64,000 bases of DNA, taken from positions 2,341-66,340 of the forward strand of contig CAJQSL010000020.1 of assembly GCA_905612315.1 (NCBI GenBank), in the 5' to 3' direction. A model generated the notes under the pieces. It worked only from the letters and a program-made list of their open reading frames with translations, ran no database searches and was not told the origin of the DNA. The stretch comes from an uncultured Francisellaceae bacterium (GTDB taxonomy: Bacteria > Pseudomonadota > Gammaproteobacteria > Francisellales > CACEW01). This document shows, one piece after another, positions 24,255 through 36,407 of the stretch (positions are counted from its first letter, which is position 1; each line of letters opens with the position of its first letter). The position numbers and the translations under genes were made by a program.

Positions 24255-24982
24255 TAGTAATGCCTATGGCTGGATCTGGAAGTCGTTTTAGTAATCTCCA
24301 TCCAGACAAAAAATTAATGCCTATACCTCCTAATAATGATCCTATGTTTATCCATGCTATAAAGAATATTGGATTTGAATTTGATAAGATAGTTTTGTTG
24401 CCACAAAAAGCGAATCAAATAAATTCTGTATTGAATGACTTTAAGGAAATAAAAAAAAAATCAGTAGTTATTGAAACTAACAAGCTTACCAGGGGGCCGC
24501 TTGATACAGTTATGTATGCAAGGCAGTTTTTAGAAGAAAATCCACATGCACAGTTGCTTATTTGTAATTGTGATCAGGTTTTATCCTGGCCGGGTGATTG
24601 GGCACTGGAGTGGTTTCGAGATAGAAATGCTGTGGGAGGCATTCCTACTGTAGAAAGATATAGTGAAAGACACTCTTATGCAAAAATAGACGAAAATTAT
24701 GCATGTAAAATTATTGCGGTAAAAGAAAAGCAGAAGATATCAAATCGAGCCACTATTGGCTTATACTGGTTTCAAACTACATTCGGTTTTTTAAAAGCGG
24801 CAGATACTGTTTTTGATAAAAGAGATACGGCCCCCAATGGAGAGTATTATGTTTCGCATGTCTATAATTATTTGAAAGGACTGATTCTTGAGTATCCTTT
24901 GTGTGAGTTTTGGTCATTAGGAGAGCCGGAAAATTATCTAAATTATATTTCGAAAAATTATATGATAGGAATGGAGGGGTAG
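24245..24982 (+). CDS. Nucleotidyltransferase (sugar/alcohol-phosphate nucleotidylyltransferase fold)
   Basis: 245 aa. N-terminal MRIVVMPMAGSGSRF (the GxGxR signature of NTP-transferases). The start overlaps the cupin stop. Confidence 0.65.
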   Translation: MRIVVMPMAGSGSRFSNLHPDKKLMPIPPNNDPMFIHAIKNIGFEFDKIVLLPQKANQINSVLNDFKEIKKKSVVIETNKLTRGPLDTVMYARQFLEENPHAQLLICNCDQVLSWPGDWALEWFRDRNAVGGIPTVERYSERHSYAKIDENYACKIIAVKEKQKISNRATIGLYWFQTTFGFLKAADTVFDKRDTAPNGEYYVSHVYNYLKGLILEYPLCEFWSLGEPENYLNYISKNYMIGMEG

Positions 24983-27118
24983 TTGATAATGAAGTCTAGT
25001 TTTAAATCAAAGTCTATGCAGTTTTTTTTGCTTTCATTTGTGGTTTTACTGTTTAATGTTGTAATTTATAGCCCATCATTACGCTTTGATGTTACTAATG
25101 AAATGCCTTGGAGGCAAACAGATTCTCAGGCGGAGATTACCGCTTACGCTAAAAATACTACTAGGTTTTACTTGCCAACTGTTAATGCCTCGCTTAAAGA
25201 ATGGGGTCCGGGAGTTATAGAAATTGTTTTTCCTATTTATCAATTTGTTACTGGTAAAATGGTTCCACTTCTAACACCTTTAATAAAAAACAATTTGCAT
25301 TCAGATGTTAAAGGGCCAATTAAGCTTCCTTATGGTATGCATTTTAAAAAATATACTGAAAGTAAGATATTAAAAGGTGATAAAGTTATATATACCCTTA
25401 AGTTTACTCTAGCTCCATCATGGGAATATAAGCTTGCCACTTTGTTTCATAATAATATATCTCAATATTTGCATTTATATTTGGTTTCTAATAAAACCAG
25501 CATGGATAAAAAATGCATTTCATTGGAAGTTAATGGCAATGCTAGCGCAGATACGCCAAGAGAATATTGTTATTCTAATAATGTTATACCTGTTACTTAT
25601 ATTCCTATCTTGCCTGGAGAGAATACTTTTAAGTTTATTTTTAGTAAGAGTATGGCCCCAGGGAATTTAGAGTCGGCAATTAGTTTGTTCCCAACTTCTA
25701 AATACGCAAGTCCCATGTTATTTGTCGGGCGTTTGCTTAATATGTTTGCAGTTGTAGCTATTTCATTAATAATAGCTGTTACGTTTTTCCCTTCGTTAAA
25801 GTATAGATATGCATGTGCCATAGCAATTTCAGCTATACCTGCATTTGGATTTTTTGAAACCTTTATTCATGAAGAAATACAAGCATTTTTATTTGTGTCT
25901 ATTTTTCTTTGGGTTGTTTTTAAAAAGAACTTGAGTCTGAGGTGGTTAGTCTTTGCATCTGTATCTCTTTCAATAGCGGTAGCAATAAGGCCTTACTATA
26001 TTTTGTATAGTTTGATGCTTATTGCATTTATGTTTCGTCAGGATGGTTTTAATATGCTGAAAAAAGCTTCATATTATTTGGCGGGCATATTAATAATAAC
26101 CCCTGCTATATTATGGTATTCCTGGACACAGCACCTTGTTAGGAATGGCGCGGATACTATTGGTATTTTTTCAGGGCGTGTATTTTTGAGTTCTTTGCTT
26201 GATTCTGCGAAGTGGCATGCCTTTTTGGGATTTTTCACGAAGTTCCATTTCGGATTGCCAGTATTCTTTCTTTTTATAATTACAATAGTTGTTTATTTAT
26301 GCTTGCGCTTTAGTAAGAAAATAACATCAAATTTTAATTTTGATGTTTTTCTCGGAGTTGGCTTTATAATTAGTTTAATTTCTCTGCCTTTGATTTTTGA
26401 TTCAGCGTCAATACATAATTATTATTCATTTCCTATTACATCTTATTTTTCAATTGCTTCTATTATATGTTTTTATGAAATATATAAAAATATAGATAAA
26501 AAGCCATACTTGAATAAAAAAAATGAACTATTAAGATTTTCATTTAAAAATATTTTATTTCTTTCTTTTTTCTCTGTGATTATAGTGTCTGGAGTAGCTC
26601 ATACCTATGTTAGATTTTACAAAAATGAGAGAACAGTTTACGACCCGTTGGATTATGTATTATTGGGGGGAGTACCTGGAGAGATATTTTCAAGTAGTGA
26701 TAAAATTGTTTTATTAGGATCAGGTGGGCCGCAAGATTATGGCATGACTAATCGTAATGGAAGAAGAGATGCTGGATTTTATTCTGGATATCACTTCCAA
26801 TCTGTTTCAGAGATTAAAGAGGTGTTAAAAAATGAAAGAAAATATTCAGTAGATACATTAACAACATTTAATAATGATATTCAGCAATTCAAAATTAAAG
26901 ATGAGGATATGAAAAGTTTAACATATTATCTAAACACTTATTATGGACCCATTTCATCATATGCTGGCATTGGTAGTTGTAAGGCAGCTTTGCATAGAAC
27001 TAAAACTTGGGATTTATATACAAAGTTTATATACGAGCTGGCAAAAAATACAAAGGGAAGTGTTGTGTATAAGTATCTAGTAAGCACCCCTTGTTTATTT
27101 ATAAAGTTTCCAAAGTAA
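24983..27118 (+). CDS. Polytopic GT-C-type glycosyltransferase-like membrane protein (copy 1)
   Basis: 711 aa. N-terminal TM, a large hydrophilic insert, about 10 further TMs and a soluble C-terminal domain. Its position next to GT2 + GtrA fits a three-component (GtrABC/ArnCT-like) periplasmic glycosylation system. The real start may be the ATG at 24989. Confidence 0.55.
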   Translation: MIMKSSFKSKSMQFFLLSFVVLLFNVVIYSPSLRFDVTNEMPWRQTDSQAEITAYAKNTTRFYLPTVNASLKEWGPGVIEIVFPIYQFVTGKMVPLLTPLIKNNLHSDVKGPIKLPYGMHFKKYTESKILKGDKVIYTLKFTLAPSWEYKLATLFHNNISQYLHLYLVSNKTSMDKKCISLEVNGNASADTPREYCYSNNVIPVTYIPILPGENTFKFIFSKSMAPGNLESAISLFPTSKYASPMLFVGRLLNMFAVVAISLIIAVTFFPSLKYRYACAIAISAIPAFGFFETFIHEEIQAFLFVSIFLWVVFKKNLSLRWLVFASVSLSIAVAIRPYYILYSLMLIAFMFRQDGFNMLKKASYYLAGILIITPAILWYSWTQHLVRNGADTIGIFSGRVFLSSLLDSAKWHAFLGFFTKFHFGLPVFFLFIITIVVYLCLRFSKKITSNFNFDVFLGVGFIISLISLPLIFDSASIHNYYSFPITSYFSIASIICFYEIYKNIDKKPYLNKKNELLRFSFKNILFLSFFSVIIVSGVAHTYVRFYKNERTVYDPLDYVLLGGVPGEIFSSSDKIVLLGSGGPQDYGMTNRNGRRDAGFYSGYHFQSVSEIKEVLKNERKYSVDTLTTFNNDIQQFKIKDEDMKSLTYYLNTYYGPISSYAGIGSCKAALHRTKTWDLYTKFIYELAKNTKGSVVYKYLVSTPCLFIKFPK

Positions 27119-27142
27119 CAAATTGTTTTTATGGTTTAAATT

Positions 27143-34845: not shown

Positions 34846-35240
34846 TATTATATAAGCAATATAAATCTATATTTTTTCAGTTATGTCGTTTTGGAATTGT
34901 TGGCGTAAGTGCAGTAATTATAAATTTATTAATTGTGATTTTTATTGTAGAGACATTTGATTGGCCGCCATTATTGGCAAATATTATTGGATTTATTGTT
35001 GCTTGTCAGGTTGCTTTCTTGGGTCATAATTTATGGACTTTTAAAATGGATACCGACGCAAGTAACTCTTGGTTGAAGTTTGTGATGGTTGCGACTTTTA
35101 GTTTGGGTTTAACTCAATTATTGTTTTTTATTTTACTGCAAGTTTTCGCTTTATATTATGTTTTTGCTTTAATTCTGACTCAAATGCTAGTTCCTATTGT
35201 GACATTTTTATTGAGTAAATACTGGGCTTTTAGGCATTGA
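34842..35240 (+). CDS. GtrA-family membrane protein (copy 2)
   Basis: Translation identical to 28476..28874. Confidence 0.75.
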   Translation: MILYKQYKSIFFQLCRFGIVGVSAVIINLLIVIFIVETFDWPPLLANIIGFIVACQVAFLGHNLWTFKMDTDASNSWLKFVMVATFSLGLTQLLFFILLQVFALYYVFALILTQMLVPIVTFLLSKYWAFRH

Positions 35241-35345
35241 TTTAGGTGCTGGATTTTGCCTTGGGTTAGTGTTATTGTTTAAATCTTATTTTAGTGAGTG
35301 TAGATAAAAAACAAAAATGGATTATTAATTAAGAGTGGGATAATT

Positions 35346-36407
35346 ATGTTTAATGATAAGTCAATATTAATTACAGGCGGCACTGGTAGTTTTGGTAAGC
35401 AATGTGTTTCTATGATTTTGTCTAGATGGTCTCCACAAAAGATAATTATCTTTTCTCGTGATGAGCTTAAGCAATTTGATATGCAGCAAGTTTTTAATGA
35501 GCCTTGTATGCGTTATTTTATTGGGGATGTTCGAGATAAAGATCGTCTTAATCGTGCAATGGATGGTGTTGATTATGTGATTCATGCTGCGGCTTTAAAG
35601 CAAGTGCCAGCAGCTGAATATAATCCGATGGAGTGCATTAAAACAAATATTAATGGCGCACAAAATGTCATTCGGGCGGCCATAGAAAATAATGTAGAAA
35701 AAGTTATAGCACTTTCAACAGATAAAGCTGCTAATCCAATAAACTTGTATGGAGCAACAAAGCTAGCTTCGGATAAGCTATTTGTTGCCGCTAATAATAT
35801 GGTCGGATCTAGAAAAACCAGATTTTCTGTAGTTAGATATGGCAATGTAATTGGCTCCAGAGGTTCTGTGATTCCATTTTTCCAGAAGCTTATTAAAAAT
35901 GGAGCATCTCATTTGCCTATTACTCATGATAAAATGACAAGGTTTTTAATTACTCTTGAGCAAGGTGTAAATTTTGTTTTTAAAAACTTTGAGCGCATGT
36001 ATGGAGGAGAAATCTTTGTTCCCAAAATACCTTCCATGAAGATTACTGACCTGGCAAGCGCATTAGCTCCTAATCTACTGCAAAAAAATGTAGGAATTAG
36101 ACCAGGAGAGAAGCTTCATGAAATTATGTGCCCGGCGGATGATAGCCATTTGGCTTTAGAATTCAATGATCATTATGTGATAAAACCAACAATTCAGTTT
36201 TCGCATACTGCTGATTATACAAAAAATAAATTAGATGAAGTTGGCAAAGATGTTCAGCCAGGTTTTGAGTATAGCTCTGGAAAGAATACTCAATGGCTTA
36301 CTAAAGATGCATTTCTTGCGCTATTAAATATGGTTGGGAAGGGAGCTGACGATAAAGTTATTAATAGTGCAACCAATTTGATTAAAGAAATTTATGAAAC
36401 GACTTAA
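35346..36407 (+). CDS. pseB: UDP-N-acetylglucosamine 4,6-dehydratase (inverting)
   Basis: 353 aa. Starts [18 protein letters not shown] (Rossmann motif), with a [12 protein letters not shown] catalytic Tyr-x3-Lys. FlaA1/PseB architecture, followed by pseC. Confidence 0.85.

Follow-up and report, generated by a model that had tools for sequence, protein, structure and literature searches.

The window analysed here is a stretch of 64,000 nucleotides from an uncultured Francisellaceae bacterium (GenBank assembly GCA_905612315.1, contig CAJQSL010000020.1, positions 2,341 to 66,340 of the forward strand), and its feature of interest is a pair of long direct repeats that bracket a single-copy gene, B. 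The locus lies just 3' of rpoBC in this marine-type gammaproteobacterium of ~35% G+C, whose RpoB is at most 62% identical to that of a broad range of Gammaproteobacteria. A long array of genes on the same strand starts past a terminator-like hairpin downstream of rpoC, and runs through a truncated initiating sugar transferase, a Wzz-like gene, a gene for a RuBisCO-like protein (RLP) and a cupin-like gene to a sugar-phosphate nucleotidyltransferase gene, X. A block of four genes, A, then occurs twice, ahead of an intact pseB (Y), after which come pseC and other pseudaminic acid genes. With y' and x' denoting fragments of Y and X, the layout reads X-A-y'-B-x'-A-Y, and it probably reflects an insertion-duplication that really took place in the chromosome, within a surface-polysaccharide locus. 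The features concerned are as follows.

24245 to 24982, + strand: X, intact sugar-phosphate nucleotidyltransferase of 245 aa (PF00483); repeat copy 1 begins with its last 31 nt
24952 to 29239, + strand: repeat copy 1, running from the 3' end of X through block A into pseB, of which it includes the first 260 nt
24989 to 27118, + strand: GT-C-like polytopic membrane protein, copy 1, 709 aa; ATG start after GGAGGGG, remote PMT_2 similarity
27143 to 28000, + strand: GT2 glycosyltransferase, copy 1, 285 aa (PF00535 at 1.5e-14)
28018 to 28479, + strand: 153-aa protein, copy 1, no family assigned; a 34% identical homologue adjoins an X-like nucleotidyltransferase in L053
28476 to 28874, + strand: GtrA-family small membrane protein, copy 1, 132 aa (PF04138 at 1.9e-23)
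28980 to 29255, + strand: y', truncated 5' fragment of pseB (TIGR03589 residues 1-89); 87 codons in register with pseB, then four foreign codons and a stop
29240 to 31317, + strand: unique segment at the duplication joint, 2,078 bp, single copy in the assembly and unlike X or pseB past the boundaries
29379 to 31274, + strand: B, 631 aa, in which nucleotidyltransferase, HAD phosphatase and APH-like kinase are fused; in-frame GTG codons at 29355 and 29367 are alternative starts
31318 to 35605, + strand: repeat copy 2, 4,288 bp
31318 to 31348, + strand: x', remnant of the 3' end of X, 31 nt including the X stop codon, with three differences
31355 to 33484, + strand: GT-C-like protein, copy 2, identical in protein sequence to copy 1; GTG start, Shine-Dalgarno sequence AGAGGGT
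33509 to 34366, 34384 to 34845 and 34842 to 35240, + strand: GT2, 153-aa protein and GtrA-family protein of repeat copy 2
35346 to 36407, + strand: Y, intact pseB of 353 aa (TIGR03589 at 555 bits against a cut-off of 408), first of the pseudaminic acid genes

Base-by-base comparison of the two copies, both 4,288 bp long and on the + strand, gave an ungapped alignment at a constant offset of 6,366 and an identity of 99.79%. The copies differ at nine positions (24964, 24973, 24979, 24989, 29035, 29070, 29197, 29198 and 29225), and the 4,045-bp core from 24990 to 29034 contains no difference. Coordinates, offset and the list of nine substitutions had been given correctly in a first-pass annotation of this DNA, and the full pairwise alignment returned the same nine and no gaps, and none of them falls in the core, for which the annotation had given identical proteins. 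Its layout was equally sound: X is an intact 245-aa nucleotidyltransferase, and y' and x' are genuine fragments of Y and X, the remnant put at about 30 nt measuring 31 nt with the stop codon included. Full-length X, both copies of A, B and pseB are all intact. BLAST against the entire 1.81-Mb assembly found block A twice and B once.

The joints of the repeat are sharp, since at all four edges local alignments of the 60 nt outside the boundaries gave scores no higher than those of shuffled sequence; no decayed homology, such as an older and larger duplication would leave, was detected there, and identity beyond the boundaries is ~30%, the random level. Between the copies the unique segment encodes B alone, with 115 bp upstream of the gene and 43 bp downstream. 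Searches of the 2,078 bp for replication, integrase and transposase or insertion sequence (IS) functions and for terminal inverted repeats found none, and there is no microhomology at the joints and no relic of an open reading frame (ORF) in the flanks of B. Promoters, terminators, IS or transposase relics and inverted repeats around B did not rise above background. The heptamer GTTATGT occurs near both ends of the insert, where it has no other support as a mark of transposition.

The nine differences between the copies are confined to the outer 243 nt of the repeat, for which P = 6e-12 under uniform placement. With the divergence of y' taken as a neutral clock, and with 807 synonymous and 146 intergenic core sites counted, 24-30 differences would be expected in the core, and 0 were observed. 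A very recent event had been offered as one cause of the pattern; as the sole cause it fails, because the edges have diverged beside an identical core. The other cause offered, ongoing gene conversion, is compatible with an identical interior between diverged edges, which is found both here and in a second repeat of the locus described below, but it is confounded by an assembly that was likely built from short reads. Two explanations of the edge pattern remain, namely that gene conversion, in tracts ending short of the repeat ends, has made the interior uniform, or that synthesis at the joints was prone to mutation. Concerted evolution by gene conversion with divergence limited to the repeat ends is known, for example, from the bacterial tufA/tufB pair. 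Both repeats of this locus are like it, and short-read assembly would produce the same picture. Among the 14 difference events of the two repeats are three adjacent double substitutions and one 1-nt indel, which would fit error-prone synthesis at joints, and chance could also yield doubles at these local densities.

The annotation had placed all substitutions in the edge remnants, and this is true of all of them except 24989, which is the first base of the start codon of the GT-C-like gene. Three of the four left-edge differences hit the translation signals of that gene, which read GGAGGGG with ATG in copy 1 and AGAGGGT with GTG in copy 2. Two of the differences in x' weaken the Shine-Dalgarno sequence of the downstream copy, and the two GT-C-like copies may be translated at different rates, copy 2 having the weaker signals. 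At the right edge y' and Y differ by R19/Q, E31/Q and G73/D and by one synonymous change, G73/D having arisen through an adjacent double substitution. PseB relatives vary at these sites, and codons 19 and 73 of Y are nearer to the outgroup codons; it is weakly suggested that y' holds the derived states, as would be expected of a dead fragment.

Self-comparison of the assembly revealed a second event of like topology on the same contig, 25 kb downstream, with a 383-bp repeat at an offset of 7,567.

53549 to 53930, + strand: repeat copy 1 of the second event, the 3' end of an intact 431-aa ORF and a truncated 5' fragment of a GT4 gene (48 codons)
53931 to 61115, + strand: insert of the second event, 7.2 kb, with genes for a C-methyltransferase, GNAT, DegT aminotransferase, GT2, GtrA, a 183-aa protein and a 516-aa membrane protein
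61116 to 61498, + strand: repeat copy 2 of the second event, a 3' remnant of the 431-aa ORF and the start of the intact GT4 gene (61353-62519)

Its copies differ on the left at 53553/4, at an indel at 53560 and at 53582, and on the right at 53856, 53913/4 and 53926, so placed that they lie no more than 34 nt from one edge and 75 nt from the other, around an identical core of 273 nt. For eight differences to be limited by chance to the outer 109 of the 383 nt, the probability is ~4e-5. In the second event, unlike the first, the insert carries transposase-like relics at either end: an ADINAACNI motif stands at ~53930 and an IS982-like C-terminus, on the minus strand, at ~60900-61100. A 48-nt piece past the 516-aa ORF (60853-60900) resembles the interior of the intact GT4 gene at 61866-61913, with 77% identity and the last 20 nt identical. 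The 383-bp repeat is short enough for ordinary read pairs to resolve.

The duplication would be an ordinary recombination scar. One rearrangement history would have produced two joints, the first between codon 87 of pseB and DNA upstream of B and the second between DNA 43 bp past B and the last 31 nt of X. The outcome would be an x'-A-y' segment present twice with no full gene lost, every flanking gene surviving because the target was duplicated. The interior would since have been homogenised, or else the joints would have been laid down with errors, as set out above. The dose of A would thereby be doubled, GT-C-like copy 2 would have the weaker translation signals, and RecA-dependent recombination between the repeats would be expected often to delete B together with one copy of A, or to amplify the unit. 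The joints between y' and B and between B and x' must exist in the sample, and the choice is therefore between a tandem duplication and a 6.4-kb circle that lacks means of replication; since the A-y'-B-x' unit carries no replication gene, the integrated form is the sustainable one.

Several points weigh against an insertion-duplication in the chromosome. The assembly consists of 113 contigs (the longest 118 kb) with no Ns and no 16S rRNA gene, and looks like a metagenome-assembled genome of the short-read type. Short reads are unable to span an exact repeat of 4,045 bp, and the two-copy layout with its perfect core could be an assembler's traversal of a loop. From any one difference it is no more than 127 nt to the next one or to unique sequence, a distance over which reads are able to phase variants. 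Searches of 40 relatives, 20 genomes of the family, 400 genomes of the class, JGI metagenome contigs and GTDB representatives turned up neither A nor a close relative of B, and because no relative carries either of them no empty-site or single-copy allele backs the history. No independent assembly came to light when the exact products of X, y', GT2 and both forms of B were looked up. The polarity of the changes in y' is weakly resolved, the sites being variable among relatives of PseB.

It is unlikely, on balance, that the chromosome holds a single X-A-Y and that the y'-B-x' path stems from a coexisting 6,366-bp circle or a minority strain variant, one edge of the assembly graph having been written twice. 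Such a loop would make the core identical by construction and would suit the type of assembly, in which no repeat longer than 383 bp exists apart from the 4,288-bp repeat, itself contig-internal and bounded at its exact core by closely spaced differences; overlaps of contig ends, which could have served as a further clue to the assembler's behaviour, were not found. Yet a 6.4-kb circle without a replication function could not persist in the absence of the integrated form, and the differences at 29035 and 29070 were kept and not collapsed, so the assembler was not merely merging variants. The second event, of like topology and of a size that read pairs can resolve, also stands on the same contig.

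For a duplication that is real, the formation route is not readable from the sequence. The candidates are a crossover with a circle, an unequal joint between sister chromosomes that captured extra DNA, a template switch during replication, and an insertion into pseB followed by re-duplication, and every one of them requires two illegitimate joints in total. The first-pass annotation favoured Campbell-type integration of a circle of x'-A-y' plus B. In full, a free, non-replicating circle would have come from outside (for example from a sibling cell by transformation) and entered by a single homologous crossover in A. This route is a possible one of low probability. The topology is an exact fit and occurs twice in the locus, but it is not diagnostic because any tandem duplication with extra DNA in its joint shares the layout, and other routes fit equally well. 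The argument is also circular, because the hypothetical circle is the very product of recombination between the present copies of A. The circle would itself need two prior illegitimate joints, so that it explains nothing beyond a tandem joint. The unique segment, moreover, encodes only B and none of the functions of a vector, and a diverged donor would have left differences throughout A and not at its edges only. The same annotation held that a simple tandem duplication could not give this structure. That holds only insofar as the end of the segment is not joined directly to its start, the joint being occupied by 2,078 bp of unrelated DNA with a complete gene; otherwise a tandem duplication with captured DNA fits.

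Rather less probable is a history in two steps, by which B would have landed in pseB and broken it, and an intact x'-A-pseB segment from a sibling would then have been added downstream, anchored in pseB/pseC and with an illegitimate left end, restoring pseudaminic acid synthesis. This scheme asks for one illegitimate joint per step and makes the second step selectable. It also has a possible parallel in the second event, whose first GT4 copy looks wrecked (a 5' fragment plus the orphan 48-nt piece at 60853-60900), a hint that this copy was once longer and was later destroyed. Against it, no pseB relic lies between B and x', and no comparator strain was found in the collections searched. Template switching deserves less credence again: synthesis would have left pseB at 29239, copied B from a different DNA present in the cell and returned to X 31 nt short of its end, copying A a second time. 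On this route low-fidelity synthesis near the switches would have made the edge differences, and the event could be very recent without any gene conversion. Sharp boundaries, differences that lie at most 205 nt from a joint in both events, and the adjacent doubles and indel already mentioned speak for this route, but the assembly holds no second copy of B as a template, the joints have no microhomology and the doubles may be due to chance. An IS- or transposon-mediated first event was rejected for want of a transposase relic, terminal inverted repeats or a target-site duplication, as was the 6.4-kb unit as a free plasmid, which would have no replication gene.

A real insertion-duplication has partial counterparts among known systems. 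Campbell-type insertion-duplication, as in the cointegrate of a suicide vector, likewise yields direct copies bracketing an insert, complementary truncations and full genes outside. The present locus differs in having no vector, replicon or recombinase and no sign of a circle, and in a homology (4.3 kb) longer than the insert (2.1 kb). Homology-facilitated illegitimate recombination in experiments usually replaces or deletes recipient DNA and does not produce a 4-kb duplication such as that seen here, for which no donor was found. The likeness to this process during DNA uptake (PMC3240628) lies in one end that would be anchored by homology, one illegitimate end and an insertion beside the anchor that needs no integrase. 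The cap locus of Haemophilus influenzae type b also carries a tandem duplication, with a truncated bexA at one end (PMC6535587), and is thus similar in having a duplicated surface-polysaccharide locus with a truncated gene at the repeat end, where recombination between copies alters dose and can abolish the phenotype. There IS1016 flanks and drives a duplication of ~18 kb whose joint is free of foreign genes, whereas the first event here lacks an IS and has an entire enzyme gene at the joint.

Scars of this kind are frequent in surface-sugar loci; the present one rests on an unverified metagenomic assembly and opens no new question. If real, it is a tidy case of a packed polysaccharide operon gaining a gene with its neighbours unbroken, and the 4.3-kb repeats would make B easy to lose or to amplify. 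A far-reaching view, which we regard as very unlikely, is that the 6,366-bp unit (A, y', B and x') and the 7.6-kb downstream unit represent an integrase-free mobility of glycan cassettes: release as circles, re-entry into siblings by single crossover with mutagenic joints, growth of the locus by repeated non-destructive insertion-duplications, and loss of a B-dependent decoration at high frequency by loop-out.

Block A itself is most likely a lipid-carrier-type periplasmic glycan-decoration module, composed of a GT2 enzyme, a GtrA-type protein, a GT-C-like transferase and the 153-aa protein. Three-component Gtr-type systems for glycan modification are known as GtrA, GtrB and GtrC from enterobacterial phages and as CsbB/YfhO/GtcA from Firmicutes. 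Block A is like them in encoding a GT2 (PF00535), a GtrA-family protein (PF04138) and a large polytopic protein of putative GT-C type together. It is unlike them in that the GT-C-like protein is a near-orphan, an extra 153-aa protein is present, and the block is chromosomal, situated in a locus of the O-antigen or capsule type and coupled to RLP, cupin and nucleotidyltransferase genes. The GT-C-like protein has only 13 matches at E<=1e-3 among 1.84 billion representatives, the closest three at 31-33% identity. Its label as GT-C is supported by remote similarity (E 4.5e-8 to 7e-4) to proteins with PMT_2, but not by Pfam, a search of which gave no match; ~240 residues lie N-terminal to the part that aligns with PMT_2-type proteins. 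The description of the 153-aa protein as GDPD-like found no support, as sequence searches of Pfam, NCBIfam and PDB gave no match, and the only relative detected is the one in L053 (34% identity, E 2e-12), where a HAD gene and an X-like gene are adjacent.

The tie between B and the RLP, cupin and X genes is the most useful by-product of the analysis. The two genes ahead of X are the following.

22760 to 23941, + strand: RLP, 393 aa (PF00016 at 8e-32), far under the cut-offs for true RuBisCO and MtnW
23928 to 24254, + strand: cupin-like protein, 108 aa, with a weak Cupin_2 match and 41% identity to a gene between an X-like nucleotidyltransferase and RLP in L047

B comprises an NTP_transferase domain, a HAD phosphatase of the EcbF/BcbF type and, at its C-terminus, a part bearing the HGD-x4-N motif found in kinases of the APH/choline-kinase type. 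Its family has ~2,000 detected members, mostly from marine metagenomes, and is uncharacterised; the nearest member is 51% identical, and a metagenome scan for relatives of B found nothing above 49% identity. The N-terminal domain matches PDB entry 4evw, which is also the best PDB match of X. On three metagenomic contigs (L046-L048) stand-alone relatives of the kinase part of B (35%, E 2e-7) and of its HAD part (45%, E 4e-20) occur, together with a separate nucleotidyltransferase gene that resembles the remaining domain of B. One or two genes away are relatives of X (31%, E 1e-26), the cupin (41%) and RLP (33%, E 1e-53). Elsewhere a 710-aa relative of the GT-C-like protein and a GT2 adjoin genes of an RLP, a 107-aa and a 233-aa protein.

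Judged by these neighbourhoods, B is no random cargo. Other organisms, too, have RLP, cupin, X, B and A in association, and we therefore infer from gene neighbourhood that they form one system, which suggests a single conserved, uncharacterised pathway for an activated glycan substituent. Synthesis of an activated donor would fall to the soluble enzymes (RLP, cupin, X and B), and block A would load this donor on a lipid carrier, flip it and transfer it. One operon would thus unite the parts of donor synthesis (RLP, cupin, two nucleotidyltransferases, a phosphatase and a kinase) with a transfer module, and as such be useful for study of the pathway.

Among the neighbouring genes, Y shares 73-78% identity with the PseB proteins of relatives. 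At the head of the array, the ORF of the initiating sugar transferase (Bac_transf), 20890-21480, has only 196 aa, and its PF02397 match stops at profile position 129 of 179. In L047 (7515-12813), and likewise in L046 and L048, DHBP-synthase-like and transaldolase-like genes are present as well.

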